This document shows positions 3,527-26,805 of a DNA stretch of 31,587 nucleotides, one piece after another; the stretch's first letter is position 1, and every line of letters begins with the position of its first letter. This DNA is from a virus (lineage: Duplodnaviria > Caudoviricetes): the IMG/VR virus record IMGVR_UViG_3300047669_002593, positions 1-31,587 of that record; one strand, given 5' to 3'. A program made the position numbers and the translations under genes. Below the pieces are notes generated by a model. It did not search any database, was not told where the DNA came from, and was given only the letters and a program-made list of their open reading frames with translations.

Positions 3527-3527
3527 A

Positions 3528-5311: not shown

Positions 5312-8300
5312 TGGCAAACCAGAGGCCCGCATATCTTACTAATATATCCAATTATTCTGGAGTATTTTCTACTGGAGTTAGTTATGAGAAGTTTGATTTT
5401 GTTTTCAATACTGGAGACTATCGCTTCTATTATGCCAAGGAGGGTCTTGCCCTGGGGGGCGCAACTACTGCATCAGGAGTAAATAGATTTTCGTTTGAGG
5501 TTAACGGGCCTGCATCAAACGGCTCTTTGGGGCATTACTTCTTTGATAACAAAAATACTCTTGCAGAATCAGGGTTTAAGGTTGGGCAAAGGGTAAATAT
5601 AGGAGGTTCGCTTAAGGATAATAATGGTTCGTATAGAATATTAGACCTGGAAAAAGATCTTGAACGCTCCATTGATGGAGGGGATATCATAACTGCCTTA
5701 GGGGCCGCTCGCCAACCCCTAATGAGCATTGCGCAAGGAAGCGAGCAATTGATAGAGCGGTCGAGTCATTCGGAGTGGGAGTCGGATTGGTTTTTTAACC
5801 CAAACTCAATCGATATAGCGAGCCTCGAATGGTGGGAAAAATCAGCAAATTTTAAACTTTACGGCGGGCTGTTTAATTGGGGAGGTCCCGATTATGGGGG
5901 CTACGTTGATCTATACGAAGACCTTGCGAAAGCTTATTCTGACTATACGTTAGGATTGCACGATGGGCAAGAACTCGTTCCCTATGGGGCTTATCCAGCA
6001 GCACCAAATACCCTGTACGACAACTCTCTTGCTAAGAGTGAGTGGGGGAACGTTCATTATTGGAAATACGGACACACGACCAGCGAGAATCGAAAACTCC
6101 CCTCCTTGAGCCAGTGGATAGTTAATGGAAGCCTCGGAATGCTATATATTTCCCCAGATGACAGCGAAGGGCGTAAAGAGGCATGGTTTTATAAAGACAC
6201 ATTGGGGTGGAACTGGACCAGTACTGGCGTTATTGAAACTGGATTTGTTTGGCTTGGAGACTCAACGGATAGCACCATAGGTCCAACTGGCTGGACTTAC
6301 TGGACATCTACTCCGCACGAAAAGCATGCCAAATCCGCGTCCTTACAAGACCTTTATGTTTATAACTATAGCTCACAAGACTGGTATCTATTTGAAAAAG
6401 AGGACGGGAATGATCCTGGAGGCGGTAAAAAGGACTCTCCAGAAACTTGGGCGAGCGACCTTTTGCCTCCTGAGCCCACATGGATAACTCATCCATTCGA
6501 TATTCCTTCAAAGAATAAGTTTACAAGGCTATGGGTTCAAGGAATTTCTCCGTCCACTAAATTCAACCATAACGAATCAGCTGGCAACAATAATGTATCT
6601 ATAACTCCCCTGAATGTAAAACCATCAGAGAATCTGGATTCTTGGTCTAAGGATTTGTTTTTCTTTGACGCGGACTACGGATCCTCTGTCAAGTTTAAAA
6701 CAAATAACCAGCGATATTCCTACGGAAATGGATATTATATAATACAGCCGAGGAATGTTAATACCATCGGGGCAGAGTTTGATCTAAAGTTTAAAAATAG
6801 AACTAATCGAGAGGCGAACGCAATTGTTCATTTTCTAGAGAATCACCAAGGGCAACATGAGTTAGATTCTTCGTCTTCAAAGTTAAAATACACAAAGGGT
6901 ATTTCTGGTTTTAGGTGGGGCGGCGATTCTACTTTTCACCCCTACGACTCTATAGAAAATCAATCTAGAAACTTCTACTGCTCTAAATTTGATCATACAT
7001 TGACTTTTGAGAATAGTAATGATCTAAGCGTTAAATTAAGAAATCTTGACGCCTCTATACTTGATAAGTCTAATGGTATGTTTGTTAAAGCGGCTCCAGA
7101 TTACATAGATGGACACCCTTACGAAAAGAATGATGTGGTATTATATACTGGGAATCACCAGTTTTATTACTGCAATCCAGAGCCAGAGCCTGTGGTTGAG
7201 GATACATGCGGCTTAACAACTAATCCATGGCCAGGAATCTATGATGTAACGTCTGATGTTGATCAAGTCCCCGCCACGATTACTATGACTTATAGTTTTA
7301 TACAATCGGGCACGAGGGTTTTTGACTCGAAAGAACCCCTATTCAGTGCGCTGTCAGGGGCTTATGCGACAACCCTGCAATACCCGTCAACAGGCGACAG
7401 TGCTGGAACTCAGGTCTCTCACGCCTCGTTTACTGGAGAAATTGGGGAAGCTCTTTCGGAATGGAAGATCGCATTCGAACATCTTTATCCTTGGTTAACT
7501 TTAAATTTTAAAAATTTAAAAGAAGAGTTGGGGCAACATGGGGCTTCTGCAACCTATGAAGGAGGAATGCCTAGCGACGGTTATGAAGGAAACTATAACC
7601 TCCCTCATGCTGATAATATTGGAGATCTTCGATTCGGAATGCATCATATAGATATAGAGGGTGGAGCAAGAGACTCCTTAGCCCACGCCTATTATCCTGG
7701 CGGAAGAATAGGGTCTATAGGTAATGTTGGCGGAGATGTTCATTTTGATTCGACAAACGCGTGGGGCACGGAACTTGATTGCGACCCTTCAGAGGTAAGC
7801 ATTAAGTATATCGCAACGCATGAGCTTGGTCATGTTTTTGGGCTTACTCACAACTCTAACCTGGCTTCTATAGTGCATGCTTCCGCAACTCTTGGGCAAA
7901 CTTATTCTGAAAAGTTTCCTAATGGAATAACTGAGTTGGATTTTAAATGTTTAGAAAAAATGTATGGACCTAGGGCAACCATCGTTAAGACAAAACCCCC
8001 AGTCGTTCAAACCCCAAAGTGGACTGAGGCATCTGGTTACTATAAAGATTCAAACGCTGATCTCTGGACGAGAGATTTTTATTGGAAACCTTCTCTCGGC
8101 TTAACCGTTGAGCAAGGGCCTAGGCTGTCAGAACTTAACTTGGGAGGGGGGTACACTCAACTCCATAAGGACGGAATAAACGAAAGTCTCTTGACTCTCA
8201 ATCTAAACTTTAACGGTAGGGACGACAACGAAACTAAAGCAATGCTGCATTTTCTTGAAAATCATTATGGAGCTATCCCGTTTAATTTTTCTCCGCCAGC

Positions 8301-10449
8301 TCCGTACGAAACTCCTCAGAATTTTATTTGTGAAGAGTGGTCGCATACATACGACTACAAAAATAGCCACTCAATTAGTGCGAGATTCGAGCAGTTTCCT
8401 TTTAACTTTACTGCAGAGCAGTACTCTAATTTGGTTCCAGAGCTTGATCCTTTTTCCGCAGAGGCTAGAGCTCACGATCCCCCCTCCAGCGCAGAGCTGC
8501 TGAAGTCTGGAAATTTAGAAGCCTTAAATGCGACTGACCTGGGAAATGGTTGGTATCAATCCTCATGGCTTTGGAAGGGTTTGCCAGATTCAAAGAGCGA
8601 GGGCTTCTTTCATCTATCTGATAGTAATCCTGGATGGATCTATCTTGCTAATTCCTGGGAATGGTGGTGGCTCACTACGGGGGGGTACACTGCAGAGGGT
8701 TCGACTGGAGTGTGGATGTTTAAATCAGCTTATTCACAAAATAATACTCCTATAACTGGGCTAGATTGGCAGTGGTCATATTCTGGTATAATGGGTACTG
8801 GCGTGGCAGATGCATGGACCTTCTCTCCATTAAGGGGTAATGCAACTCAGAAATGGACGTCTGAGATTGGAACGGGTTGGTTTTATTGGAGACCTCCAGA
8901 TATTAATAAGAGGGGGAAATGGGACTCTGTCGGAAATCGTTATGTATCTGGGGCCGACGCTAGGGTATGGGGAGCAGAGTCAGGTTTATGGTACGATGTA
9001 GAACTAGATGGGTTATCTGAGGAATTTTCTAACGACGGCGGTGGTGATCCAGTAGGTTATGCTGATCTGGAGGAAGCGCTCATTAGCCTCTTACTCGGCG
9101 AACAAGGGGATATGAACGACGAAGGCTTCGATCCATTCAAAAAATTAAAAGAAACATATCCCACAGAAGAAGAGAACGGAGAATTCGATCCTCCCGTACA
9201 GGAGGAAACAGGCGCTGATGAAACCCCATTGGTTTCGGAACAACCAGAAGTAAGTGAAACCCCGCCGACACTTCCAGTTGGCGGCAGCTTGATTTTCGCT
9301 GATCCGATAATTTTTTCAGGGCCAGAGCAAGAGCAAAAATGGATAGCTCCAGGCCAGAAGGGGAAGTATAGAGTGAGTCTTGAAAATGTTGGGGAAGCGG
9401 ATGTTGATTTGAGTCGAGCGCGTGTAGTCGGGAGGTCTGAAGGAATTAATTTCGCCCTCCTTGGGCAAACCTCCTATGGGGGGGATAACTTTAAGGGGTA
9501 TATACCTGGTCATTCTCCCGAAAAGGAATTAACCGAGGGGGCTCTTAACGCAGAATGGGGAAACGTGCCAGCGGTCAATAGGAGCGCGGTGGAGGATAGC
9601 GACAACTTTAGCTCTATGGAAGACTTCTTTAATGCCAATAGGGTTGACATTCCAGACAAAGGGCTTCCCTTTGATCTAGGTCTTGCGTCCAAGGGAACCA
9701 CTAAGGCTATACTTTTTACTCAGAAAAGCTATAATGCACCTGCCGCTGACGGGGGCGCCTTTTTTAAGCTTCAAACAGGGCATACTAATGCGGATCTCAG
9801 TTTTGAGTATAGGGATAGAATGGTAAAAGTCTATGATCCTTACGCTGTTGACGAGTTGGGTAATTTAGTCGTCGGGGCAGGTACTGACTATCCGTTGGGG
9901 CTATGTAAGGATGCGTATTATCAACGAAACGATGCATCTATCCTTTCTGGATTTAAAGACCCCACGATTACTGCATACAACAAGAATCCGCAGCTTAATA
10001 AAGTTGGGGACTGGGGAGGTCTTAAGGGGGGTAAGTGGATGATGCCAGGCAACGGGGTCTCGCATTATATTGAAAGCGGATACTTTGTTAAAAATCTCAC
10101 CAATGTATTAAAGCCTGGGGAAAAGGCTTTCATGGATATAGTTTTTAGTGGAATCCCCTCTGATAAATATTCAACCAACTCTACGGGCCCAGTAGATTTC
10201 CTTGCCTCTGGATGGTTTGGGGATGATCACTTGCCGATTGTTCCTCATCCAGTCAATGGAGATGTCAGTTACCAGGACTCTAGTTATAGAATAGAGTTTG
10301 GCGACGACAATGACGCAACCTATGATGGGAACATAGTTTTTGAAAATCCAAGAACTTATTATTATGGAGATCTAACCGTATCTAGCACGGACGCACACAG
10401 CCCACAAACTTCTGAAATAAGGGTTTTCGTGTGGGATCAATCGGAGTAA
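5311..10449 (+). CDS. Giant minor tail protein with two gpM-like domains, a matrixin (M10-like) zinc metalloprotease, two Trp-rich domains and a C-terminal Ig-like region
   Basis: gpM-like segments at ~6643-7044 (YGNGY..NVN..FDLKF..EANAIVHFLENHQG) and ~8065-8400 (FYWKPS..LGGGYTQ..DGIN..AMLHFLENHYGAIPFNFSPP..FICEEWS..ISARFEQ). Also LAHAYYPG, GGDVHFD and HELGHVFGLTH. It lies directly upstream of gpL. Confidence 0.85.
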   Translation: MANQRPAYLTNISNYSGVFSTGVSYEKFDFVFNTGDYRFYYAKEGLALGGATTASGVNRFSFEVNGPASNGSLGHYFFDNKNTLAESGFKVGQRVNIGGSLKDNNGSYRILDLEKDLERSIDGGDIITALGAARQPLMSIAQGSEQLIERSSHSEWESDWFFNPNSIDIASLEWWEKSANFKLYGGLFNWGGPDYGGYVDLYEDLAKAYSDYTLGLHDGQELVPYGAYPAAPNTLYDNSLAKSEWGNVHYWKYGHTTSENRKLPSLSQWIVNGSLGMLYISPDDSEGRKEAWFYKDTLGWNWTSTGVIETGFVWLGDSTDSTIGPTGWTYWTSTPHEKHAKSASLQDLYVYNYSSQDWYLFEKEDGNDPGGGKKDSPETWASDLLPPEPTWITHPFDIPSKNKFTRLWVQGISPSTKFNHNESAGNNNVSITPLNVKPSENLDSWSKDLFFFDADYGSSVKFKTNNQRYSYGNGYYIIQPRNVNTIGAEFDLKFKNRTNREANAIVHFLENHQGQHELDSSSSKLKYTKGISGFRWGGDSTFHPYDSIENQSRNFYCSKFDHTLTFENSNDLSVKLRNLDASILDKSNGMFVKAAPDYIDGHPYEKNDVVLYTGNHQFYYCNPEPEPVVEDTCGLTTNPWPGIYDVTSDVDQVPATITMTYSFIQSGTRVFDSKEPLFSALSGAYATTLQYPSTGDSAGTQVSHASFTGEIGEALSEWKIAFEHLYPWLTLNFKNLKEELGQHGASATYEGGMPSDGYEGNYNLPHADNIGDLRFGMHHIDIEGGARDSLAHAYYPGGRIGSIGNVGGDVHFDSTNAWGTELDCDPSEVSIKYIATHELGHVFGLTHNSNLASIVHASATLGQTYSEKFPNGITELDFKCLEKMYGPRATIVKTKPPVVQTPKWTEASGYYKDSNADLWTRDFYWKPSLGLTVEQGPRLSELNLGGGYTQLHKDGINESLLTLNLNFNGRDDNETKAMLHFLENHYGAIPFNFSPPAPYETPQNFICEEWSHTYDYKNSHSISARFEQFPFNFTAEQYSNLVPELDPFSAEARAHDPPSSAELLKSGNLEALNATDLGNGWYQSSWLWKGLPDSKSEGFFHLSDSNPGWIYLANSWEWWWLTTGGYTAEGSTGVWMFKSAYSQNNTPITGLDWQWSYSGIMGTGVADAWTFSPLRGNATQKWTSEIGTGWFYWRPPDINKRGKWDSVGNRYVSGADARVWGAESGLWYDVELDGLSEEFSNDGGGDPVGYADLEEALISLLLGEQGDMNDEGFDPFKKLKETYPTEEENGEFDPPVQEETGADETPLVSEQPEVSETPPTLPVGGSLIFADPIIFSGPEQEQKWIAPGQKGKYRVSLENVGEADVDLSRARVVGRSEGINFALLGQTSYGGDNFKGYIPGHSPEKELTEGALNAEWGNVPAVNRSAVEDSDNFSSMEDFFNANRVDIPDKGLPFDLGLASKGTTKAILFTQKSYNAPAADGGAFFKLQTGHTNADLSFEYRDRMVKVYDPYAVDELGNLVVGAGTDYPLGLCKDAYYQRNDASILSGFKDPTITAYNKNPQLNKVGDWGGLKGGKWMMPGNGVSHYIESGYFVKNLTNVLKPGEKAFMDIVFSGIPSDKYSTNSTGPVDFLASGWFGDDHLPIVPHPVNGDVSYQDSSYRIEFGDDNDATYDGNIVFENPRTYYYGDLTVSSTDAHSPQTSEIRVFVWDQSE
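7273..7971 (+). other. Matrixin-like metzincin protease domain within the gpM-like protein
   Basis: TYSF start, GDLRFG, LAHAYYPG, GGDVHFD..W, HExxHxxGxxH at 7819-7851, and a closing D...LEKMYG helix. Confidence 0.88.
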
Positions 10450-10453
10450 AAAT

Positions 10454-11560
10454 ATGAGCCACTCAACAAAAACCTTCAATCAACAGTTATTGTCTATCGC
10501 TCCAGATGTTATTATAGATTTGTATGAAATTGACTTTAGTAATCTTCAGGCTAATTTTGATGCAGTCAAAGACTTAGAGGGAATCAACTTTGGCGCCGAG
10601 CCTGCTTATAGATTTTGCCCAATGATCCACGGAACAAATCCAATAATATGGCAAGGCAAATCCTACCAGCCCCTTCCGATAAAAATGGAGAACTTTGAGC
10701 ATCAGGCTGACGGAAGATTGCCTCGCCCCAAGTTGACCATAGCAAACCCAGAAGGATTATTGTCTATAGTGACTCACTCCAATCATGATTTTGCAAATTG
10801 CATGGTTACGAGGAGGAGGACTTTTGCTAGATTTCTGGATGACGAAAACTTTCAAAATAGAGGGCTTAACAGGGAGGGTAAAAATCCATTTGGCGCAGCG
10901 GATAGAGCGTCTCATTTTCCCGATGATGTTTATTTTGTAAACAGGAAAACCGCAGAAAATAAGGAGTCTCTTGAGTTCGAGTTGGTTTCCGCATTAGAAC
11001 TAGAGGACGCTCAGGTTCCAGCGAGAATAGTTTTGTCTGGCTATTGTCCTTTTAAGTATAGGTGTTCGGTTGGATGCGGATATAGTGGATATCCTATAGA
11101 GAATTCTGACGGAAAGAATTTTAAGGACCATTTTCTGGCAGACGTTTTGCTTCTGGAAGACATGAGTCCTTTGGAGAGCCACCTCCTCGCCACCGCCGCC
11201 CAGGACGCATTGGGCCTCGCCAAAAAAAGCGTCGACCCAAGATTTCCAGAATGGAGCCCATTTGGCCCCAAAGGCTCCGAAGGCAATATAAGACCATACG
11301 AGGTGGGGAAGATGGTTCAAGTGAATCCAACCCACGAAACGGACCCTGCGCCATTGGTTTTTATGTGTATTAAATGGCACTCTACTCCAGGCAAGCATAA
11401 TCCTTTGCATGATCGAGAGCATTGGGGGTTGGATGAATGCAACAAAGATGTAAGCGCTTGTAAGAAGCGGTTTGGTAAAGTAAACTCGTGGAACCAGTCT
11501 GATGAAAAGGGATTAAGATTCGGAGGATTCCCATCTACTGAGAGATATTCTTTTGAATAA
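10454..11560 (+). CDS. gpL: Minor tail protein L (lambda gpL-like, Fe-S cysteine set)
   Basis: IDLYEID, IIWQGKSYQPLPI..ENFE..GRLPRPKLTIAN, VTRRRTFARFLD..NF, EFELVS, CPFKYR..CGYSG, DECNK..ACKKRFG, FGGFP. GGAG lies upstream of the ATG. Confidence 0.93.
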   Translation: MSHSTKTFNQQLLSIAPDVIIDLYEIDFSNLQANFDAVKDLEGINFGAEPAYRFCPMIHGTNPIIWQGKSYQPLPIKMENFEHQADGRLPRPKLTIANPEGLLSIVTHSNHDFANCMVTRRRTFARFLDDENFQNRGLNREGKNPFGAADRASHFPDDVYFVNRKTAENKESLEFELVSALELEDAQVPARIVLSGYCPFKYRCSVGCGYSGYPIENSDGKNFKDHFLADVLLLEDMSPLESHLLATAAQDALGLAKKSVDPRFPEWSPFGPKGSEGNIRPYEVGKMVQVNPTHETDPAPLVFMCIKWHSTPGKHNPLHDREHWGLDECNKDVSACKKRFGKVNSWNQSDEKGLRFGGFPSTERYSFE

Positions 11561-11894
11561 ACGAATTCTGCAGGATATTAAGGAGTACGCAAGACTCTAC
11601 CCAGGTCAAGAAACCTGTGGTCTGGTGGTTCGCGAAGGAGAAGGGTTGTCGTTTGTTCGTTGTGATAACGAGCATCCACGTCCAGAGTCCGCTTTCCTTA
11701 TGTCTGCTCAAAAGTTTTTATCCTACGAGAATGTTGAATATATTTATCACTCTCACCCCAATTCCTCGTCCGCTCCTTCGGATCTAGATAGAGATTATTC
11801 CGACGAATTAATGATGCCATTTTTAATTTATAGCTTGCCTGATGATAATTTCACTTTATATAAAAATAAAAGTGTATATTCTGATTGGGTATAA
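11553..11894 (+). CDS. gpK: Tail assembly protein K-like, JAB/MPN domain only
   Basis: ETCGLV...YHSHP...PSDLD is the JAMM motif. It sits between L and I/J and has a TTG start overlapping the gpL end. At 113 aa there is no room for NlpC/P60. Confidence 0.88.
   Translation: MNKRILQDIKEYARLYPGQETCGLVVREGEGLSFVRCDNEHPRPESAFLMSAQKFLSYENVEYIYHSHPNSSSAPSDLDRDYSDELMMPFLIYSLPDDNFTLYKNKSVYSDWV
11869..11880 (+). promoter_or_regulatory. Candidate late-promoter motif AAAGTGTA plus AT-rich tail
   Basis: AAAGTGTATATT begins 32 nt before the I-J start. The same 8-mer precedes the S74 gene. Confidence 0.3.
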
Positions 11895-11900
11895 GGTAAA

Positions 11901-14900
11901 ATGAAAACGATCCATCTTCACGGGGAACTAGGAGAACGCTTTGGTAAAAAGTGGAACTTTGCTATTGACACTCCGAACGAAGCGTTTAGTGCAATACATG
12001 CAAATACAAGCGGGTTTATTGAATATCTAAATAAGCAGGCGAGAAAGGATATTCAATATGTTGTCCTAACTAAAAACCCAGAGAAGCTTAAAACAGAAAA
12101 AGATTTCTTGAAAAACGCTATTACTTCCGATGGTTTAGGAATGCGCACTTCGAAGAAAGAGTTTCATATTATTCCTCTGATTCAGGGAGGGGGACCCGTA
12201 GTCGGAGCGTTTATTGTTGAAGTTCTTGTATATACCGCAGTTGCTATCGTTGTCGGCCTTATCGTGCAGGGCATTATGAAAATGCTATTTAAGCCTCCAG
12301 AGAAAAAGGATCCCGTAACGAGCAAGTCTTACTTGTTTTCTGGACCCCAAAACGTAGAAGCTCAAGGGATTCCAGTGCCCCTAGGTTACGGAAGGTTAAG
12401 AATCGGCTCTGTTGTCGTAGGGGCAAAAAAAAGCTCCCGCAGAGATAAGAATAGGAACACTTCTACAACCAGCCAGAACGAGGCGGCGAGGATGCTCCTA
12501 GAGTCCATCTCCGAATTTGAGTATTCGGAGTTGCTATGCGAGGGTCCAATTGAGGGATTTGTAAATATGAATGGGGGTCCAATATCTTCTCCAGAGGCCG
12601 TTACAGAGGGGATATTCTTTAATGAGGTTCCAGTTAAGAATACTCCAAAATACGGAGCTGGAATGGGCGACCCTAATTTCCTTAGGCCAGGAGGGGGAAG
12701 GGACGAATACGGAACTCTAAATTTCATCATGAACGAAGGAGTGGAGAGGGAAGATGGCTCCATGAAGATGAAGATGCCTCAAGTAAGGTTGGGACATGCT
12801 AAAGAGTGGGATAGCTCCTTCTTTGGAGAGGAGGCGGCCGAAGCTTGGGTTGGCACCTCATCGACGTCTAATTATCAGACTATCTTATATGGCGGAGCGC
12901 CTTATAGAAAGTCGTCGGAGAGGCTTTTTGCCAGTGCGGACTCTACGGTAAACAGCACGGGAAATGAAAAAGGCGATCTCACAACTTTAAGGCTTAGTTT
13001 TGAGGAATCTATAGCTGGAGGAGCGAAGCTTTGGAGCCACAGCGTAATAAATAGTGATGTTGATCATATCAAAATTAGCTTGCGCTCCATGCTGAGTCGC
13101 CAAAAGGACAACGGTGAGGTTGCACCCAATCATATTATGTTTGGCATTCGGGTAAGGATAGGAGATAGGTATTATAACCCCTTGGAGCAGAGCCACTTCC
13201 CTCTGAGCTCTTATTTTGTTAATGCCAGTAAGGTTCGCAACGATAAGGGTGACTTGTGGAATATTATACCTAATCAAACGAGAATTCATGGTGGTGTTAC
13301 CTTAGTGAAAGAAGGTCAAAAGATTCGATTTTTCTCCAATCACATTGGGCTTCCGCCGCCACGAGACGGAGAACCCCGTCGGATGCTTCCGACAACAAAT
13401 GAAGGCGTTCTGCTTGAGGATAAGGAATATTTCGTGCGAAATGTCGAACGCGGCGAAGATATGAAGATTCAAGGTTACGGAACTACGGGAACGTCTACTT
13501 TTGAAATATCTGAAACGATAGATGGTGCCGTTCTTACTTTTACCAAAAAGGGTGCGTGGACCAGTAAGTCCGTAGAAGCGTCCGAAAGGATCGGTGTCGC
13601 ATCATATTGGGGGTTTGTGGAACCCTCTTGGAATCTTAGCTACAAAGGCACGCAAGAAATGAGGGATGGAAAAGGAGGCCTCAACCAGGTTGTTGGAAAT
13701 ATCCCTGATAATGCTTTTTTTCAACTAACGGGTTGTTGCACTTCAGAGTATGAATTTGACATAGAGTTTAATATTCCAAAGGTAGATGCTTCTGGATATA
13801 AAATACCTACGCTGGGCGAGGCTTCACAGATACAGATTTGCAAGTTCTCTTCGGAATTGGATCCAAGCGTAAAGTTTACTCCTGCAAGCATTAGCAACAC
13901 AGATGAGTTTGTTCTTCCAAAAAATTACAGTAACTTAAACAACCCCGAGCCGATAACAGTTCAAAGAGTTCATACTGGGACTTCTCAAAACTGGAGGGTT
14001 CTTGTGCTGTTGGAAGCCTGGGAAAAAAGGCAAGGCTCTCCCTTTCCCATTCCGAGGCACTGGTGGACAACTGAAAAACAGGTAAGCGAGGGTATAGGCG
14101 GAGTCAACCAGATAAAAAATCTAACCATTTCCTCCATAACTGAATCCGTGCAAGAGAAGTTCTTGTATCCTCACAGCGCTATGATTAAATTGTTTTTTGA
14201 TAGCAAGAATTTCTCGCAAATCCCAACGAGGTCTTATCATTTAAAATTAAAAAAGGTGCTGGTCCCTTCTAATTATGACCCAGTTTCGAGAGTGTATGAT
14301 GGGCCATGGGACGGGCTGTTTCGTGGGCAGAGCACCTCATCCGCTTCCATTCATAGTGTTGATGATAGGGATTTAGCGTGGACAGATAACCCAGCTTGGA
14401 TATTTTATGATTTGGTGACTAACACTAGGTATGGATTGGGCAAGTTTGGGGTGGGTGAGGCTAATGTGGATAAGTGGCAGTTATATAAAATTGCAAAATA
14501 TTGTGACGAATTAGTTGAGACTGGCTATCCCTATGAATCCCAAAGAAGAGGTTGCCTTATTAGCAATACCTTAGGTTTTCTTAAAATAAACACCTCGGAC
14601 AACGGGGGCGTTGTCGGCTCAGACTGGGAGAATCATTATCCCACTGAGGGCAAATCCGCAATGATTGATTACGGCGCGAGGAATAAAATGCTGCGGAGGG
14701 AAGCTTTGAAATCTGGAGGGTCGGATGAGGTGTTCGCAGTTGCAGTGGAAAACCTTACTGCGGAAGAGTTTGAATTTGAGTTTGGGGATAAGTTTAGCTT
14801 TAAGGGGAAGAGGGTCGCCTTTTTCATAAATGAAAATAGCTCCGACGACGTGAGTGCATCTTCTGCTCAATTATTCGCGTGGACTGATGAGGGAAATAAT

Positions 14901-17819: not shown

Positions 17820-17820
17820 A

Positions 17821-20800
17821 ATGGAAAACATGCAAACTTCAATTGGGATAGGTTTTGACGTTAATGATGTAAAGTCTTCTTATGAAGTTATAGGCACTTC
17901 AGATAATTATTCTTTCCAGGAAAAACTAGGAAGGGGAGGTTCGCTAGTTCTCTCTGAAGGGGAAAGATTTGAAAAGGCTATATCTTTGAAGGGTAATTAC
18001 GGTTATTTTAATGTTAGAGTTTTCGCCGTAAGCGATATAGGTATCCGATCCTCATTTATTGAATCGGGCATACATATTAACCCTCCCCAGTTCGATGACA
18101 CTTTTACTTTTTCAAAACTCGAAATCTCTAACCTTCCCAAAAATCCAACTGTAGGGTCTGCAATTGCGAATCTGCCAGAGCGTGAAAATAATATTCTCTC
18201 TGTTTCGTCTGAATATGTTGGCTCAGAAGTGCAATTTAACTGGGAGTTGACTCCTCCTCCTGGGCACTCTAGGGAGGGAACCTCTCTCTCGGACCAACTC
18301 CTGTCTGATGATTTATTTGACAAATTCTCATTGGAGCTAAAAAACGAAGGGACTGGTACGCTGGGGAATTTAAACGAATGCCAATCTCTTGTTTCATACT
18401 TAAAAACCCAAGATATATCTGGGGCTTTTTCGAGCTACAAGAACTTCTCTTTGCTTTTGGATGAGCAATGTTTCCACGAACTCAATATCGACAGGGCTTT
18501 TTCCCTTAAAGTTGTCGCTCACGACGTTTTTGGAAATACCTCTACAGGGGTAATAACTGGAACAAACTACAAGCCAGTAATAAATACCTTCAGCTCTTCT
18601 GTTATTGATTCCATTGCTGTTTTTCAATGGGGTCTTTTTGATACAGATTCAGCAGGGGTTTATGTCGGTCAGTTGGGGCTTCCTTATGGCGCTAGCTTGT
18701 ATGACCCAAAAAGCTTAAACAAAAGCTTAGATCATCTTAAATCTCTTCAAGGCGCAGAGGCATTTTCTGAGATGCGCACTTATGAGTCTGGGGAAGTTGC
18801 TTTATATTATGAAAATGTATACAAAGCCTCAGGAGACTTTGATGGCGCTGGAGTATTTAACCTTGCAGATTGGGATAATCTGGGACCTCCTATAGAGTAT
18901 CATCATCAAACCTATCACCAAGATTCTGATGAAATTGCCCTAGAACAAAATTGGGGATGGTCTTATTGTTATGCTTTTCAGCCTGAAGACGGCTACGGAA
19001 GGGGAGAGGTACATAACTTAATGCAAGACGGGAATATAGCCACAGGGTCGACGCTGGGGCAATTTAGGTCTACTTTAACGATTGCAGATCTTCGCTTTAG
19101 TGAGAGCGCTGATTCTTTTGCGTTTAACTGGAAAGTTAAGGATGATTCAGATAATACTATCGACCTTAATCGTTATAGGTTTTTAACGGATAAATCTGCT
19201 GGTATCGCGCCCAGGGTATTGGGGCTTAGTGGCTCCCTCTTTGATGCTGACACGAATCTATTTCTCTCTGGATTAACACAGGGAACCACTCAAGACTATA
19301 AGAGAAACACATTAAATATCGACAGCTTTGAGTATAAAAGAGAGCTAAATAATTTATTATATGGTACTGAAGGATGGCCTGGTGTTCCTCAAGCCTGGAG
19401 CTCTGCGGAATCATACTCTAGTGGGGATTTGGTTTTGGCTGATACTTTGTATGATATCTGGTCCGCAACTTCTGGCGTCGATTCCGACGTTTCCCCTTAT
19501 GTGTCTCCAACGTATTCATCATGGAAATCTAGTGGAAATTATACCTACCAGTCCAGCCCGCTTTACTACGATGTTGTTTCACAAGGAGGTTCATTATATG
19601 CTCCTACTGGCACTGGGTCTAAGTATGTCATGGGGCCGCTGGGCAATAATGTAAGCGGCGTATATAATGAACTATTGGATTATGTATCTGGAGACAAGGT
19701 TATTTGCCCCCTGTTTGTTAATATTTATTCTTCTGGGGAGGAGTACGCCGTTGGAGATAAGGTTTTATATGAAGGTAACATGTATAAGTGCGGCGTTACT
19801 CATGACCCTATCGATCCAGTTTCCCCAGGCGGGATTTATCCTCTGTATGTTGGAGTCGTAAAGGATTGGTGGTGGGCGGATCCATTCAGGGATGCTTATT
19901 CTGACGTTTATTTATGTACTGGTGCGAATGGCACGGGATCTGTTAACCACCTATCTTTACCAAGTACTGGATATCGCCACTGGCATTGGGAGGTTCCTGA
20001 GACCTCTTCTGGCTGGGTTAAGATTATTGACGCTTATCCGCTATCAGCTAAGGAGTGGAGCGACAAAGTAGCTTATACGGCTGGAGACTTTGTTTCTTAT
20101 TCTAATGATATATGGAGCGGAAGCAAGTATAGTGGGCCAATGTTCGCTAACGGAGCCCAGCCCCCCTCAGAAGGGTCTCTTTACTGGGACAATGAGCCAT
20201 ATGGAAACGATATAACTACCAGTCACCAAAAAGGCAATAAGGCTTACTTCTATAACTCTGTATATACCGCCTTAAGTGACAACCCAACTGGCTCCCCCAT
20301 GAAGCCGATCCAAGGTCATTGGGGCGTAGACTCTCAATGGATGCCTTATTGGGAACAAGTACAACTTAACTCCAATGTTGTCTATAAACACTTAGCAATC
20401 CCGCAAAGCGGAAAAAGAAGCGTTGGTTTTGAAATAGGAATTATTGATAGGGACGGAAAGCTCATTAGCTCTGAAAAAATCACTGCAGATAATCCCGCTC
20501 CAGCAATTCAGCAAGAGGGGTTTTCGGTAAATAGTCTAGAGGAAGCTGAAAAGGTCAAGTTTAACTTTAAGTACGCATTTGGACACAGGGAAAAAGTAAC
20601 TAAAGTTGAGCTTTATAGATCATCTAGCGATTCAGATTTATCCATACTTGACTCAAACGGACTTCCTGGATCTGGAGCACCCACTTTTGTGCAATCTTAT
20701 TTCGGAGGAGCAGAAAGGGATTTTGGTCAAAATATAACCCAAATAACTGACACTCCCCCCATAACTAACATCCAGGGAGAGGATCAAATTGTTTCGAATT

Positions 20801-23800
20801 ATTACAAAATTCTACCATACGATGACTTTGGTAGTGGTTACGAGTTCGATGTGAGTGAGTGGTTGGTGTCTATTGGGGAAAGTCCTGGGGTTTTGTGCTA
20901 CCCAAAAACCTTAAATAATAAAGATCCAAGCGTTCCTCCTGGGCCCATTCTTCGCCTTGCGTCTGGAGATATGCCTGGCGCGCCTTCAGGCTTCTCTGGA
21001 AGCTCTTCTTTTGAAAATTATTTTCTAAAATGGAGCATCCCTCCCGTTCACCCGCATCTATCCCCCGAAAGACAACCTAATGATCTTAGTCATTACGAAT
21101 TATGGTCTACTTCCAAGGGCGCTGCAGGAAACGATGCTCAGGATTACTTATATTTTCAAAGCGAAGCAAGCAAGTTAACCCATTATAGCAATACTGGCTA
21201 CAGGAGAATACTTGGAGATGTTTCGTCTGTAGGTCTCGTCCCTAATACTCAAGTTGATGCCTCCGAAGGAATTACAAACGCAACCAATATACTAAATGTG
21301 GACGCGTCTTCTCCGTATGTAAATATATCCGTCAAGGGGAGCTCGAACGAGAAAAGATATTTCTGGGTAAGGGCTGTTGATCAGGCTGGGAATAAAGGGC
21401 CATTCACTGGCAGTGCTAATTTGGTTGGGAGCGACGTCTTGGGTTTGGATGCGGGAACTCTCGGTCAGGTAAAAACCACAGACGTTGCAGATTTTGAGCA
21501 AAATATAACCAAGACGTTCCCTAATACCTTAGCTCTAGTCCCCACTAATCCATTTGAGAATGAAGATCCAAACTCCAACTCTATTAGTTGGCCGCAACAT
21601 TTTCTTTATCAAGATGGAGATGGTTATGTCGTCTCTGCGGGTAATACGGACGACTCTTATGTATACTGGAACTCAACTGGAGATAACGTAGTTGCTCTTA
21701 CCTCGTCTCAATCTGGCGAGCTAGGCTTGTTGCCGTCTCAAACTATAAACTCAAGCAATCCCCTGAGAAATATTGTCTGGAGCGGAAGATATGACTCTAT
21801 AGATCGTCATCCAGCTGGCAATAATGCTCAAGCCAGCGTTTTAGGGGAGAATAATTTCATTATCGCGAGAAACAGTAATGGCTTGGCCGTCCCGATGTGG
21901 CACGCATTTGCAAATGCCTCGATAGGAACTGCGCATATCCAGAACGCTGCGATTACAAATCTGAAGATTCATACTATGACCGCAGATAAAATAACTGCTG
22001 GAGAAATTCATAGTGAAGATGTTCAGATTGGAGGGACTGGACAAATTAGGTCCGCTGGCTTCGAAGGGCTGTCTGCCCCTGTTGGTCAGCAAGGTTTTGC
22101 CCTAAGTGGTGACGGCAGTTTTATATTTGCTGGAGACACGGGGAGGTTGTACTTCGATAATGGCGTCTTAACTATCGAAGGTATTATAAGAGAGAAAGAC
22201 GGAAGGCCGTTTACCATGACCACGGTAAGAGCAGAGCCTAGTATGTTTAAGTATACCCCAGCGGGAGTTGCGGATGGGCCTTCATATATAGATATATATG
22301 CGCAATTTCAAAACGTAGATGCCCACCTGGTCGAAAACGATATAAAATGGGCTATAGAGGGAGGGCCTACGTTAAACCCTTTCTCTTTGGGTTTCTCTGA
22401 TTCTCCATCGGTTGGACAAGAAATCAGCGGATTCACTTACGAGGGTTATAATGCAACCTCTATGGAGGCGCACGCAACGCTAACCTTAACTGGTTTTAAT
22501 GCTATGATAAGCGGTTTGCCCCCCTCGTCCTCAAGGTCAGACAGCGTTACGGTTTACGTCTCTGGATTTGAAACTAGAGCAATACATGCTGTAACTGTAT
22601 ACAAAAATGAAGATGGGGAAGCTGGGGTAACCGCCAATATAAACGCAGGAACTCAAGCGTTTGCTTATGGAACAAATCCTGCCGACGGGCTGATTGGGCC
22701 AGCAAGCGTTGAGGTGACTGGCGAAAGCTTTAAGTCTTTCGGTGATATATATTATCAGTTCTATGTTACTGGGGGTGAAGTGCAGAACTCAAATAGCGAC
22801 ACTACTATTACATACACTCCTCCCACTGGCTTTAATCAGATGCCAGAAAAAATAGAGTTGATCATAAGGGATGGCGCAACCAACGGCCCGATCCTAGCTA
22901 AGGACGCATTTACCATGTACGGAGTTAAGGCTGGCGAAGACGCTTATAGCGTATTTTTGACTAACGAAGCTCATACCTTTCCAGCAAACGAAAACGGAGA
23001 CGTTTTGTCTTCGAATTTATCTGACGGCTCAACAGAAATAAGGTTCTTTAGGGGGGACGATCAATACACTTATTCAAACGGAGGGTCTGCGGCAAATACA
23101 TATAGTGTCGCATCCAACACGAATGGAATTACTTTAAGTAGTGCCACTGTTGACAACCAACTGAAATTAACTCCCACAGACGTAACCAGCTCGAAGGGGT
23201 CTGTGGATTTTACTATTACAGATAATAAATATGGAGATTCCTTTGATAAAAGTTATACTTTTTCCGTCTCGTCGGTAGGCAGTGGAGCCAGAAGCGTCGC
23301 TTTGGCCTCAAGCTCTCAGGCGTTTTCCTATTCGATGCAGTCATTAACAAGGGCAGAACCAACGGGGCTACTGGACCCCGATGACCAATACCAAACTGTA
23401 ACTGCAACAGCCGAGGGCTTTACTGGTACCCCATATTACATTTTCTCGACTGGATTTTCAGGGGATATGGAAGCAAGTCACCGCGGGCCATGGAGGTCGC
23501 ATTGGCTTCCTCATCACACATATTATCCCCAGAAGCTTTTCGATGATATGCCAGAAACGCTTGAGGCGAGGGCTTATGATGGAATTCAGTGGACTGGCAC
23601 ATTACTGTGGGACGGAGACAGGTCTTTATCTCCCGATGATGTTTTCCATTTTTACAATTCCAACATGAATCCTCATTCTACTTCTTGGGATTCGGACCTG
23701 GGGCACTATGTTGGAGAAGGAACGGGTTGGATGTATCAAAACCCTTATCCCACGCTAAAGAATCCGCTTATCCCATATTACTCCCTCTGGAACGCTGCTG

Positions 23801-26800
23801 GTGGTGATGGTCGCTTTAATCCATATGGACCTGTTTTGGCCTATGACCAAGTAACGATGTTCGGCTTAAAGCCTGGCGAGGACTCCTATACCGTATTTTT
23901 AACCAACGAAAACGTAACCTTTAAAGCAAACGAAAAAGGAGAAATTTCCAATTCGGAGTTTGAGCTAGGAGCTACAGAGGCGAAATTTTTCCACGGACTA
24001 CAAGAATACAGCTACGGATATGTCGGACAAGCTAATACATTTGGCCTTAGTACTTCGTCCCCTGAACAAGGAGGGGCCCTCTTCAGTATCAATGGAGGAA
24101 AGGCAACTCCTACAAGTGTAACCCCCGACAATGGCACTGGTTTTGCAACTTTTACGTTTTTTGACAACACTTCCGATCTTACGTTTGAAAAGAAATATAC
24201 TTACACTGTAGTCTCTGAAGCTAGCGGCTCTAGAACCGCCTCCTTTGAGACTGCGACTCAGGCGTTTTCCTATAATCAAACTGGATCTCTTGATCCTGAT
24301 ACACAAAGTACGAAAATAACTGGTTCAGTTTTAGGTTTTACTGGGGTGCCGTATTATGATTTCATAACACCAACTGGAAGCATCTTGGGAACCTCAACTA
24401 ATACTTTTGAGTATTACCCCGCAGGGGGAGGAGGGAGAGTTCACGGAACGAACTTTGATACGATGCCAGAACTTATCAAGATGAATGTCAGGGACGGATC
24501 TCCTGATGGTAAGGTGCTTGCTCAAGACCTCCTTACTATGTTTGGGGTTAAGCCAGGAGAAGACTCCTATACCGTATTTTTAACTAACGAGACTCATGCT
24601 TTCCCAGCTAATTCAGCGGGAGTTGTAGCGCCGTCAGATTTACCATTTGGATCCACAGAGACGAGGTTTCTTAAGGGGAAGGTTCCATATAGCTATGGAA
24701 CGGGCCCGAATACTTACACTATTTCAAATGTTGAATTGCATAACATCGCCTTTTCTCCCGCAGACGGAACTGCCGCTGGCACTAATAGAAAGTTTACTCC
24801 AAGCTCTATAACTTCAAACATAGGCTCTGGGGTTTTTACGTTTAAGGATAATGCCAATAACCTAACTTTTGATAAGGCTTACACTTTTACAAAATCGTTG
24901 GATGGGGCAAGCGGAGAAGATGGAAAAACTGGGATGTCCCCAGTCTACAGAGGGAACTGGAAAAATGCTGAATCTTATTATGGAGACCCAGCTGGGAGGA
25001 GGGGGGATGTTGTCTACTATACGGGGACAGATTCGTATTACATAGCCGAACTTAGCCATACTAGCAGTGAACCTCCAAGCGCAGATAAAAGACCTAGCGC
25101 CTCAAGTATATACTGGAATCAATTTGGCGCAACATTCGATAGCGTCGCAACTGACCTACTATTATCTAAAGACGTTTTCGTCACCAACGAGCTCGTAATG
25201 GGAGAGTATGACGCGAATAATCCGAGCCAAGGAGATGGCGGAACATTTAGAAGCGCAAACAAAAAAGAATTCGGAAGGGGTACAGGGTACTTTTTTAAGC
25301 ATGGGGGACATAAAGATTATGAAGCTTATGTTGGAGGAACGTTTACTGGCGAACAAGATGTATATGGACTAACTACAGGATCTTATGTTGGGATAGGATT
25401 TAGCGGTTATGGTCAGCCTGGAGAATCCGATGATCCGAGCGTGGGTTCGAATGGCGGCCATTATAATTATGATTTATCCTATGCGTGGGCGAATTATGTT
25501 TTAGGGGGAAAGAAATCGGTTGGAGCGTTTGGGGCTGGACTCAGTTTATTTGATTGGGGCAGAACTCATTATTGGAGTTATTATAACGAATATAATCAGG
25601 GCGTTTCTAGATATATGCCCTTACATACTGGGGTTAAATTTGACATAGGGCATGATCATATATCTGAACACATGACCTTGTTTGATGGCATCTCTGGGGC
25701 TCTCAGGAAAGATTCGTATATTCGCTATGACGGAGCCAGGGGGAAGGTTGAAATAAAAGGAGCTTTTCAAAACAACTCTATTCAGGATTCGTCTATTGGG
25801 AGCAATATTACACAACTCCTTGAAAACAATTCTGATCCATTGGCTACGTTTATTGGCGGAGGATACAATAACGAAATTCTAATGACCCAGGACGGGCTTG
25901 GTTATGATAGCGTAGGCTCTTCGATTGTTGGCGGCGGATCAGGGGTTATCCAAGGAAGGTTCTCTTTAATTGGTAATGGATTTGGAAATGAATGTTACGA
26001 TAACTTTTCGGTAATTGGAGGAGGGCTTTATAATACTATGCCCGCGAAAACCCCAAGTAATGAAGGGGGGAATTTCATTGGGGCAGGATCTTATAACTCA
26101 ATAAGCGGGGCAAGTTTCTCTTCTATCATTGCGGGGACAGCTAATTCCATACAAAGGTCTAACAGCTCTTCCATTGGAGGCGGAAATAATAATTTTATTA
26201 TCGGCGAGTCTGGCTCTGTCCGATTTGATGAAGATAATAGCCCTATGGGGCATAGGTTCCTTGGGCATTTTGGCGCTAAGGAAAGCTTGGGGGTTAGTAG
26301 TGAAGCTCCTGGCTGGGTAACGGGAATGTGGTTTCCCGCTTCTGGCAGTCGGGCTGGGGTTCAAAATTGGGGAAATGATATGTGGGCTGGAAACCAACTA
26401 AGGGGATTGGCTTCATCTGCATGGGCCTACCATTCGGACTTTAGCTGGATCTATATTGCTGAAAATACTTTTACTGGACAGGCTTATTCAACTTCCGCAA
26501 TGAACGGTATGACGATTTGGTTACAAGATCCAGTTGCGACGTCCCCCGATGCAGGCCCAGGGTGGTGGCACTTTTATAGAGAATCAGGGATATTTAATGG
26601 CTTAACCCCATCTCACTCACATTGGGTTTTCGAACACCCCTCATACGCCCCAGCGCAAAACTGTAATACGGGAGAAGGGGTACTTGCTTATTCCTATGGG
26701 GAAGAAAAGTATTATGCCCTACAGGCGGGGTCTGATGGTAAAGTTTATTGGAATGACCCGCTATCTCCATACCCCAAGAACAACTGGCAAGTATTCTGTA

Positions 26801-26805
26801 ACTAA
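17821..26805 (+). CDS. Giant tail fibre / C-terminal continuation of J (FN3-like domains, CBM5/12-like motifs, three tandem repeats, Gly-rich repeats, Trp-rich tip)
   Basis: FN3-like FNVRVFAVSDIGIRS and PGAPSG..LKW..DLSHYELW..YFWVRAVDQAGNKGPF. J-type ASIGTAHIQNAAITNLKI..ADKITAG. Repeated W....Y..GD.V.Y motifs and IGGG.NN repeats. Confidence 0.82.
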   Translation: MENMQTSIGIGFDVNDVKSSYEVIGTSDNYSFQEKLGRGGSLVLSEGERFEKAISLKGNYGYFNVRVFAVSDIGIRSSFIESGIHINPPQFDDTFTFSKLEISNLPKNPTVGSAIANLPERENNILSVSSEYVGSEVQFNWELTPPPGHSREGTSLSDQLLSDDLFDKFSLELKNEGTGTLGNLNECQSLVSYLKTQDISGAFSSYKNFSLLLDEQCFHELNIDRAFSLKVVAHDVFGNTSTGVITGTNYKPVINTFSSSVIDSIAVFQWGLFDTDSAGVYVGQLGLPYGASLYDPKSLNKSLDHLKSLQGAEAFSEMRTYESGEVALYYENVYKASGDFDGAGVFNLADWDNLGPPIEYHHQTYHQDSDEIALEQNWGWSYCYAFQPEDGYGRGEVHNLMQDGNIATGSTLGQFRSTLTIADLRFSESADSFAFNWKVKDDSDNTIDLNRYRFLTDKSAGIAPRVLGLSGSLFDADTNLFLSGLTQGTTQDYKRNTLNIDSFEYKRELNNLLYGTEGWPGVPQAWSSAESYSSGDLVLADTLYDIWSATSGVDSDVSPYVSPTYSSWKSSGNYTYQSSPLYYDVVSQGGSLYAPTGTGSKYVMGPLGNNVSGVYNELLDYVSGDKVICPLFVNIYSSGEEYAVGDKVLYEGNMYKCGVTHDPIDPVSPGGIYPLYVGVVKDWWWADPFRDAYSDVYLCTGANGTGSVNHLSLPSTGYRHWHWEVPETSSGWVKIIDAYPLSAKEWSDKVAYTAGDFVSYSNDIWSGSKYSGPMFANGAQPPSEGSLYWDNEPYGNDITTSHQKGNKAYFYNSVYTALSDNPTGSPMKPIQGHWGVDSQWMPYWEQVQLNSNVVYKHLAIPQSGKRSVGFEIGIIDRDGKLISSEKITADNPAPAIQQEGFSVNSLEEAEKVKFNFKYAFGHREKVTKVELYRSSSDSDLSILDSNGLPGSGAPTFVQSYFGGAERDFGQNITQITDTPPITNIQGEDQIVSNYYKILPYDDFGSGYEFDVSEWLVSIGESPGVLCYPKTLNNKDPSVPPGPILRLASGDMPGAPSGFSGSSSFENYFLKWSIPPVHPHLSPERQPNDLSHYELWSTSKGAAGNDAQDYLYFQSEASKLTHYSNTGYRRILGDVSSVGLVPNTQVDASEGITNATNILNVDASSPYVNISVKGSSNEKRYFWVRAVDQAGNKGPFTGSANLVGSDVLGLDAGTLGQVKTTDVADFEQNITKTFPNTLALVPTNPFENEDPNSNSISWPQHFLYQDGDGYVVSAGNTDDSYVYWNSTGDNVVALTSSQSGELGLLPSQTINSSNPLRNIVWSGRYDSIDRHPAGNNAQASVLGENNFIIARNSNGLAVPMWHAFANASIGTAHIQNAAITNLKIHTMTADKITAGEIHSEDVQIGGTGQIRSAGFEGLSAPVGQQGFALSGDGSFIFAGDTGRLYFDNGVLTIEGIIREKDGRPFTMTTVRAEPSMFKYTPAGVADGPSYIDIYAQFQNVDAHLVENDIKWAIEGGPTLNPFSLGFSDSPSVGQEISGFTYEGYNATSMEAHATLTLTGFNAMISGLPPSSSRSDSVTVYVSGFETRAIHAVTVYKNEDGEAGVTANINAGTQAFAYGTNPADGLIGPASVEVTGESFKSFGDIYYQFYVTGGEVQNSNSDTTITYTPPTGFNQMPEKIELIIRDGATNGPILAKDAFTMYGVKAGEDAYSVFLTNEAHTFPANENGDVLSSNLSDGSTEIRFFRGDDQYTYSNGGSAANTYSVASNTNGITLSSATVDNQLKLTPTDVTSSKGSVDFTITDNKYGDSFDKSYTFSVSSVGSGARSVALASSSQAFSYSMQSLTRAEPTGLLDPDDQYQTVTATAEGFTGTPYYIFSTGFSGDMEASHRGPWRSHWLPHHTYYPQKLFDDMPETLEARAYDGIQWTGTLLWDGDRSLSPDDVFHFYNSNMNPHSTSWDSDLGHYVGEGTGWMYQNPYPTLKNPLIPYYSLWNAAGGDGRFNPYGPVLAYDQVTMFGLKPGEDSYTVFLTNENVTFKANEKGEISNSEFELGATEAKFFHGLQEYSYGYVGQANTFGLSTSSPEQGGALFSINGGKATPTSVTPDNGTGFATFTFFDNTSDLTFEKKYTYTVVSEASGSRTASFETATQAFSYNQTGSLDPDTQSTKITGSVLGFTGVPYYDFITPTGSILGTSTNTFEYYPAGGGGRVHGTNFDTMPELIKMNVRDGSPDGKVLAQDLLTMFGVKPGEDSYTVFLTNETHAFPANSAGVVAPSDLPFGSTETRFLKGKVPYSYGTGPNTYTISNVELHNIAFSPADGTAAGTNRKFTPSSITSNIGSGVFTFKDNANNLTFDKAYTFTKSLDGASGEDGKTGMSPVYRGNWKNAESYYGDPAGRRGDVVYYTGTDSYYIAELSHTSSEPPSADKRPSASSIYWNQFGATFDSVATDLLLSKDVFVTNELVMGEYDANNPSQGDGGTFRSANKKEFGRGTGYFFKHGGHKDYEAYVGGTFTGEQDVYGLTTGSYVGIGFSGYGQPGESDDPSVGSNGGHYNYDLSYAWANYVLGGKKSVGAFGAGLSLFDWGRTHYWSYYNEYNQGVSRYMPLHTGVKFDIGHDHISEHMTLFDGISGALRKDSYIRYDGARGKVEIKGAFQNNSIQDSSIGSNITQLLENNSDPLATFIGGGYNNEILMTQDGLGYDSVGSSIVGGGSGVIQGRFSLIGNGFGNECYDNFSVIGGGLYNTMPAKTPSNEGGNFIGAGSYNSISGASFSSIIAGTANSIQRSNSSSIGGGNNNFIIGESGSVRFDEDNSPMGHRFLGHFGAKESLGVSSEAPGWVTGMWFPASGSRAGVQNWGNDMWAGNQLRGLASSAWAYHSDFSWIYIAENTFTGQAYSTSAMNGMTIWLQDPVATSPDAGPGWWHFYRESGIFNGLTPSHSHWVFEHPSYAPAQNCNTGEGVLAYSYGEEKYYALQAGSDGKVYWNDPLSPYPKNNWQVFCN
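19393..20352 (+). repeat. Cluster of about six CBM5/12 (ChtBD3)-like motifs in the fibre
   Basis: AWSSAESYSSGDLV, SWKSSGNY..YDVV, YNELLDYVSGDKV, YSSGEEYAVGDKVLYEGNMYKC, WSDKVAYTAGDFVSY, HQKGNKAYFYNSVYTA. Further copies occur near 18763 and 24946. Confidence 0.7.
22633..24906 (+). repeat. Three tandem protein repeats (about 213, 309 and 226 aa) in the fibre
   Basis: Each unit reads QAF.Y...F..MPE...DG..G..LA.D..TM.G.K.GED.Y.VFLTNE...F.AN..G...TE..F..G...F.K.YT. An identical 23-mer GACTCCTATACCGTATTTTTAAC occurs at 23881 and 24562, and CTCAGGCGTTTTCCTAT at 23315 and 24257. Confidence 0.92.
25846..26205 (+). repeat. Gly/Ser/Asn-rich short repeats, probable trimeric beta-solenoid
   Basis: TFIGGGYNN, SSIVGGGSG, SLIGNGFGN, SVIGGGLYN, NFIGAGSYN, SIIAGTAN, SSIGGGNNN. 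Confidence 0.75.

Follow-up and report, generated by a model that had tools for sequence, protein, structure and literature searches.

Tryptophan-rich modules at the tail tip of a large-phage clade are homologous to a mostly C-terminal module of exported Opitutales proteins

This study focused on a tryptophan-rich protein module that occurs repeatedly in the tail genes of one viral sequence, referred to here as the window, which is 31,587 nucleotides long and represents the whole of a linear IMG/VR virus record (IMGVR_UViG_3300047669_002593; CheckV completeness 29%). The window holds four homologous copies of the module, each of about 95–130 residues, two of them strong and two decayed and weak (the second gpM copy and the fibre copy), distributed over a gpM-like distal tail protein, a gpI–gpJ fusion protein and the C-terminus of a fibre. 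The module is characteristic of a clade of large phages, in which the gpJ copy is fixed while copies in gpM, in the unnamed tail gene g2 and in the fibre region are variable, and its cellular relatives are found mostly at the C-termini of exported proteins of Opitutales (Verrucomicrobiota). By analogy with the tail decorations of other siphophages, the tail copies on balance probably provide an accessory, reversible attachment to an envelope component that is held by the host's own exported proteins.

All four stretches are in frame and on the plus strand, in the genes and at the places where the initial annotation had put them, although the limits given there required some adjustment. The first gpM copy (M1) spans 5773..6393, with a narrower core at 6109-6393 and its first motif at either 5773-5796 or 6037-6063. 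Within the same span lies a second, different mobile module (5893..6093, +) with the pattern Y-x-x-Y-V...L...H-aromatic...G...E-x-R, which recurs in gpM of relatives (L008/L183) and stands alone in the g2 homologue of another (L180), and has no Pfam match. The other gpM copy (M2, 8527..8997), found in the window phage type only, lies behind the second of two gpM units. The gpJ copy (16650..16976) extends to about 16970 and is the best conserved of the tail copies, while the diverged copy at the fibre C-terminus (26311..26715) stops at about 26715, short of the limit first given.

That these copies are mutually homologous, as had been supposed, is supported both by pairwise comparison and by profiles. 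Against 1000 shuffles, M1 and M2 (z 5.1; 0/1000), M1 and the gpJ copy (z 6.5; 0/1000), and M2 and the gpJ copy (z 4.7; 1/1000) were clearly related; the fibre copy was not significantly similar to M1, M2 or the gpJ copy (z 1.1-1.9; 52-146/1000 shuffles). A phage profile built without any window sequence, from five copies found in other phages, scored 25.7 bits with M1, 14.5 with M2, 20.3 with the gpJ copy and 12.6 with the fibre copy, which it aligned over most of its length. Reversed sequences reached at most 1.7 bits with this profile, and a tryptophan-rich control stretch of the fibre −0.8 bits. Because the profile places all four stretches above each of 300 shuffles, the window is confirmed, at the level of sequence, to hold four homologues. 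With four different profiles the fibre copy scored 12.6-15.7 bits (0/300 shuffles each). A profile made from cellular copies only gave 57.9 bits to the gpJ copy, a value that is partly circular since this copy was the query that collected the profile rows, along with 23.6 to M1 and 12.7 to the first half of the fibre copy (E 0.002 among 399 open reading frames); the ranges with cellular profiles were 57.9-62.6, 23.6-26.6 and 12.7-15.7 bits, respectively, and 0/300 shuffles reached them. M2 was undetected by the cellular-only profile (-1.1 bits, 5/300 shuffles).

The likeness to a domain of Opitutales, which the initial annotation had pointed out, was borne out when matches were collected and tabulated by taxonomy and position, Verrucomicrobiota being enriched and the copies mostly C-terminal. 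A phmmer search with the gpJ copy against 1.84 billion representative proteins returned 37 matches, which were the query itself, five other phage gpJ proteins, one unrelated repeat protein (P0006, left out of all counts) and 30 proteins of cellular type. Many of the latter are large and adhesin-like, and cadherin, Ig, InlB-B, LamG and related domains occur in this group. Every taxon-bearing name obtained was Opitutae, Puniceicoccales or Verrucomicrobiota. A motif scan covering 12 of the 64 parts of GTDB gave 122 loci, of which 115 were true at 20 bits or more and seven, below 20 bits, were dropped; 108 of the 115 belong to Verrucomicrobiota, with 88 of these named Opitutia. The distribution is patchy, with matches in six of 251 genomes from across the phylum (E cut-off 1e-5), 59 of 201 from the order (1e-12) and 39 of 41 from the family of Ca. 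Chordibacter (1e-20), which by its NCBI label is Ca. Seribacteraceae.

A single 7.2-Mb Opitutales genome has 127 module matches. Each of 49 proteins fetched from it carries one copy, and 43 end no more than 15 residues past that copy; among further cellular-type copies, 70/74 and 17/30 lie within 15 residues of the C-terminus. In the same genome a crude signal-peptide rule was passed by 28 of 48 carriers with a closed start, compared to six of 45 neighbours, so the predicted placement on the C-termini of many exported proteins was upheld. Not all copies follow this pattern, since five of the 49 carriers have a tail of more than 30 residues after the copy, and N-terminal (P0012, P0036, P0133), internal and tandem copies also exist, with further non-standard cases in P0009, P0075 and P0076. 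Such exceptions are more in line with a module for binding than with a strictly terminal signal.

A histidine in the second hairpin is nearly invariant in the cellular family, being present in 103 of 104 cellular-type copies (30/30 and 73/74), which were collected without selecting for it, and in 46 of 49 copies in genome G002. Among the tail copies it is kept in the fibre-tip copy and in copies of three related contigs (L173, and the gpM proteins of L174 and L180). AlphaFold models of a cellular copy (pLDDT 91) and the gpJ copy (pLDDT 81), built from input alignments that share rows and compared by their run of strands, have 11 short strands each, so that in both the module is predicted to consist of about five short, aromatic beta-hairpins in a meander. 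An autotransporter-like membrane barrel was considered and dropped, as the predicted strands, of 4-6 residues, are too short to cross a membrane. A complex prediction for homotypic docking of the cellular and gpJ copies scored 0.00, which counts neither way.

Queries with the tail core genes found relatives of the window in viral and metagenome contigs, including contigs of 177 and 184 kb. A gpJ copy occurs at the same site in all seven phage types that span it (16-58 bits with the cellular-only profile), and where measured the gpJ cores of these relatives match that of the window at 56-61% identity; those of the closest GenBank phages are about 42% identical. Elsewhere in the tail the module comes and goes. 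The first gpM site is filled in three of six types, and the second in only one of six, the window type, being absent from the five others with a whole gpM; relatives have gpM forms of 732-1081 aa without some or all of the inserts, and g2 of L174 carries an inserted module. Weak copies were found at or just past the fibre end in five relatives (G006, L185, L186, L007 and L173), and none was detected in L005. In the more distant L017, gpM is bare and gpJ lies outside the locus. An extreme decoration is seen in L174 (6057-13733), where gpM has 2558 aa with an RCC1-like repeat region first and a Pro-Asp linker, both recognized by eye.

An unrooted tree of 94 columns was computed from cellular and phage copies, for which the filter let through 88 of the true loci, 66 of them being used. 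One branch (SH-aLRT 95) unites ten gpJ copies and joins six other tail copies at 88. True copies from Syntrophobacteraceae or Deltaproteobacteria (L024, L026, L040, L052, L099 and L129) include five that were placed in the tree, and these form one branch. In a metagenome-assembled genome assigned to Myxococcota (L097), both matches lie on a single contig, possibly a binning error.

The same phages also carry the module outside the tail. The complete relative G006 has a stand-alone gene (L145:4068-5477) whose product combines an HExxH peptidase with a signal peptide, recognized by eye, and a C-terminal module of the canonical type (73.6 bits). Among 11 viral motif matches, two of which (L175, L179) were left out of the counts, six are small stand-alone genes coding for a signal peptide or lipobox plus the module. 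Three of these are distinct (L172:7815-8525; L176:7839-8228; L178:7878-8273) and belong to related large phages, the neighbouring genes matching those of G006 at up to 69%. The four stand-alone phage copies share 41-47% identity with the cellular copies closest to them and fall at four scattered places among them, a scatter consistent with what repeated uptake from hosts would produce in this unrooted tree. The small genes of L172, L176 and L178 are candidates for superinfection exclusion or surface remodelling.

The host of these phages is very probably a marine member of Opitutales, and probably one of Ca. Seribacteraceae. Independent support comes from G006, which encodes (L146:15391-18725) a DUF1501 protein adjoining PSCyt2/PSD1 (DUF1549/DUF1553), a pair that is closest to Ca. 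Seribacteraceae among the Verrucomicrobiota tested. The best matches of this DUF1501 protein (56%, about 505 bits) are in two genomes, G278 and G305, both in the module-rich Ca. Chordibacter family; it reaches no more than 53% and 462 bits in a phylum-wide sample, and no more than 31% in plasmids of other phyla. PSD1 was found in none of three non-Verrucomicrobiota module carriers and none of 14 controls. As a host marker the tmRNA of G006 was uninformative, with only its T-arm matching. A literature search for DUF1501 together with phage gave unrelated-looking papers only. The proposal that the module predicts the host is therefore sustained by the Opitutales enrichment and the DUF1501/PSD1 hint together; the module alone does not fix the host, because seven of the 115 true matches lie outside Verrucomicrobiota.

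The following scheme would account for these observations. An ancestor of the phage clade likely took the module from an Opitutales host. The cellular module would bind a component of the envelope, and would do so without a covalent bond, given that N-terminal, internal and tandem positions also occur. On the tail tip its copies would act as an accessory adhesin giving a reversible, avidity-based first attachment, as carbohydrate-binding modules (CBMs) on evolved Dit and Tal proteins do. In lambda, gpM is a hexameric Dit and gpJ a trimer that binds the receptor through its final 149 residues, according to PMC7291167. The two PF05939 units in each gpM chain, found in the window and in relatives, suggest a trimer forming a pseudo-hexameric ring, and a trimeric two-unit gpM (6 copies), a trimeric gpJ (3) and a trimeric fibre (3) would together display about 12 copies per virion. 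A changed affinity or specificity would be possible after loss of the histidine.

The closest precedent is the evolved Dit/Tal of siphophages infecting lactic acid bacteria, in which accessory aromatic-rich modules are carried on Dit, Tal and other proteins, vary among phages and become multivalent through tail symmetry (PMC7291167, PMC6669499). As described in PMC7291167, CBMs inserted in these proteins bind the host with an affinity below that of the main receptor-binding protein, and PMC6669499 describes CBM modules decorating several virion proteins in varying combinations. The window has the same combination of a Dit/Tal core (PF05939 twice, PF13550) and an added domain that varies among relatives, and the tail modules may work as such a decoration carrying a new module. 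The present case differs, however, in that the tip is of the lambda gpM/L/K/I/J type, the phage is large and the host is likely a diderm of the Planctomycetes–Verrucomicrobia–Chlamydiae group; no CBM family or solved fold was matched, one module is reused in three proteins, and the presumed host equips exported proteins of its own with that same module.

Several observations weigh against this interpretation. The gpM copies appear dispensable, as three of six types lack them, and the identity between the tail copies and the cellular copies closest to them is no more than 22-38%. The tree, which lacks a root and spans 94 columns, gives M2 and the fibre copy unreliable positions. The histidine is present in none of 11 gpJ copies and is absent from both gpM copies of the window; since it is lost there and kept at the fibre tip, the ligand site or affinity may differ by tail position, and the idea of the same anchor domain on phage and host stands as regards homology while a shared ligand is made less simple. 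On the side of the host, the seven true GTDB matches outside Verrucomicrobiota are from Syntrophobacteraceae, Deltaproteobacteria or Myxococcota, and one non-Verrucomicrobiota genome (G003) has six module matches. The DUF1501 comparison covered Verrucomicrobiota genomes and plasmids of other phyla, and concerns a gene of the relative G006, outside the window; a prophage search with the gpJ core found no gpJ relative in 401 Opitutales genomes; and the peptidase part of the stand-alone G006 gene occurs in none of 201 Opitutales genomes.

The loss of the histidine is also what gives weight to a first alternative, which is possible although unlikely, that the module is host-derived but re-purposed, so that tail copies without the histidine site bind a strain-specific glycan, algal polysaccharide or gel particles and not the ligand of the cellular module. 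It would explain why all 11 gpJ copies lack the residue and why tail copies have long loop insertions, and the CBM5/12-like repeats and metallopeptidase of the same tail would suit contact with particles or capsules. Against it, the fibre-tip, L173, L174 gpM and L180 gpM copies all keep the histidine, and the Trp/Gly pattern and predicted strands are retained.

Cargo mimicry, in which an outer-membrane protein for export or tethering recognizes the cellular module as a tag, like the C-terminal domains of type IX secretion systems (T9SS), and serves the phage copies as a receptor on which to dock, is in our opinion quite improbable. The single copy that many unrelated proteins with signal peptides carry at their very C-terminus, with more than 100 copies per genome in one case, is as would be expected of such a tag, and the fibre copy is placed like the end of lambda gpJ that binds a protein receptor (PMC7291167), but the N-terminal, internal and tandem copies noted above (P0012, P0036, P0133, P0009, P0075, P0076), along with the five of 49 tails longer than 30 residues, are unlike a strict terminal signal.

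That the module is only a structural or neutral decoration, a compact and well-folding insert that stabilizes the tail tip or has no role in adsorption, is very doubtful. Its irregular occurrence in gpM, g2 and the fibre region and the strong decay of M2 and the fibre copy could be read in this way, but one gpJ site is kept in 7/7 types, the gpJ cores of which match that of the window at 56-61% where measured, gains have occurred at four different tail genes, and stand-alone secreted forms exist in the same clade. A reverse or shared origin, in which phage tails or a shared mobile pool gave rise to the module and bacteria acquired it later, would be compatible with a rootless tree in which tail copies have their own deep branch, but is most improbable given that cellular copies are far more numerous and architecturally diverse, that four stand-alone phage copies lie at four places among them, and that two queries found no copy in 50,697 GenBank phage records.

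A broader extension of the attachment hypothesis, which is speculative and rather unlikely to hold in full, is that marine Opitutales have a so far undescribed envelope-tethering system, in which one ligand or outer-membrane partner holds from tens to more than 100 exported proteins, and that this clade of large lytic phages exploits it twice, the tail copies mimicking cargo in order to dock and the secreted stand-alone copies occupying sites and so excluding competing phages. If this were true, the phage modules would offer a ready means of probing the anchor in a lineage that is abundant, uncultured and polysaccharide-degrading.

Searches of sequence and structure databases did not assign the module to a named family. 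The window copies matched no family in Pfam or NCBIfam at E 10, and 28 members gave scattered weak rows only at E 1. The PDB sequence search returned one row, XepA, at E 0.32, and word-index searches with the gpJ copy or the phage alignment returned self or nothing. In the ESM Atlas no named cluster corresponded to the module, and the nearest clusters (0.89-0.90) are unnamed, from Verrucomicrobiota and of low recognition, which makes them a lead only. The family W_rich_C (PF07483) was rejected, as it matched none of the 28 members and its profile was touched, below the cut-off, by the unrelated P0006 alone. A P0010 query against viral contigs found nothing, and no copy was found in plasmids, as in the GenBank phages. 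Foldseek gave no matches at E 0.001 against PDB and BFVD, and VIA-align against 48,161 chains gave none at Z of 5 or more (best Z 4.5 for both models), from which neither a new fold nor a difference follows.

Choline-binding repeats are common to pneumococcal surface proteins and phage lysins. The present module resembles these repeats (CW_binding_1, PF01473) in having predicted aromatic-rich beta-hairpins of about 20 residues and in being common to host surface and phage proteins, but it is a fixed five-hairpin unit, unlike their variable repeat arrays, and is found on the virion, not on a lysin. None of the 28 members matched PF01473 at E 1, nor did any of the four window copies, and Foldseek rows for CbpF (E 1.5, TM 0.20) and LytB were non-significant (E 1.5-4.3, TM about 0.2). 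The T9SS C-terminal domain (PF18962/TIGR04183) and PEP-CTERM (TIGR02595) are similar in that a single small unit ends many unrelated proteins with signal peptides, as many as about a hundred in a genome. They differ in that the present module is also N-terminal, internal and tandem, has no transmembrane helix in its model and belongs to another phylum; the PF18962/TIGR04183 profiles matched none of the 28 members, and TIGR02595 had no profile match among members.

No paper on the module or on its use by phages was found in the open-access literature, supplements left out, where host predictions for these contigs could be located. While binding modules decorating Dit and Tal are known, the literature covered had no record of this module, of its repeated use in three tail proteins or of its being identical with a host export tail. 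A group of phages of marine Verrucomicrobia averages 39 kb (PMC3861242), and the one cultured Opitutales phage found in the literature, P8625, is small (PMC4642752); neither resembles the present clade by size. The module links an uncharacterized clade of large phages, with one complete member of 184 kb, to a likely marine Opitutales host, and it offers a functional clue for an unnamed host module, since retention on the virion tip suggests a ligand accessible from the outside. A host's own protein-anchoring module on a phage tail may also be a possible general route to host prediction. By G+C content at third codon positions there was no signal of recent transfer, the domains having 0.39-0.45 and the genes 0.39-0.43.

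The tail genes of the window share gene order and core domains (PF05939, PF05100, PF13550, NF049904) with the lambda gpM-gpL-gpK-gpI-gpJ tip, and depart from it in having a gpM with two units and several inserts, a gpI–gpJ fusion, and a C-terminal half of gpJ that is apparently a protein of its own, of 2994 aa. The window holds the end portion of a tape-measure gene, followed by the unnamed g2 and g3; g2 (3489..4409, +) is a conserved tail gene with no family match and is without the tryptophan-rich module in the window. Next come gpM (5311..10449, +; 1712 aa; PF05939 in two stretches, E 2.8e-26), gpL, a minor tail protein (10454..11560, +; PF05100, TIGR01600), a gpK-like JAB protein (11553..11894, +; PF14464, phrog_30), and the gpI–gpJ fusion or Tal/baseplate hub (11901..17819, +; 1972 aa), with phrog_32 at aa 1-181, phrog_31 at E 2e-116, PF13550 at aa 1148-1307 and NF049904 (lambda_TipJ). 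The fibre (17821..26805, +) has CBM5/12-like repeats (PF02839) and a match to phrog_19445 (Tal) at aa 1366-1419, and in every relative whose sequence extends to this point its homologue comes after gpJ; the fibre is likely the split-off C-terminal half of gpJ, that is, the central fibre. This layout of a gpI–gpJ fusion and a separate fibre of 2-3 kaa with CBM5/12-like and Ig-like repeats (11901-26805) is shared by the relatives. Downstream are a fibre chaperone with an S74 domain (26821..27396, +; PF13884) and a gene for a 292-aa protein (27386-28264, −) with no family match and no match in GenBank phages. On the strand opposite to the tail genes, the window also has glycosyltransferases (GTs) of families GT9 and GT4.

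Besides M1, M2 and the second small module, the window gpM has an insert with a matrixin-like HExxH metallopeptidase (7663-7968; gpM aa 785-886, PF00413) between its two units, amounting to a virion-borne protease on Dit; two relatives, L006 and L008, have gpM without this insert. The relative G006 (L140-L148) is rich in glycan genes, including GT2, GT4, GT9, GT25, two DUF2827, WavE and two NDP-sugar dehydratases, and it also specifies DNA polymerase III alpha, ClpB, UvdE, a tmRNA and an S74 fibre of 2381 aa.

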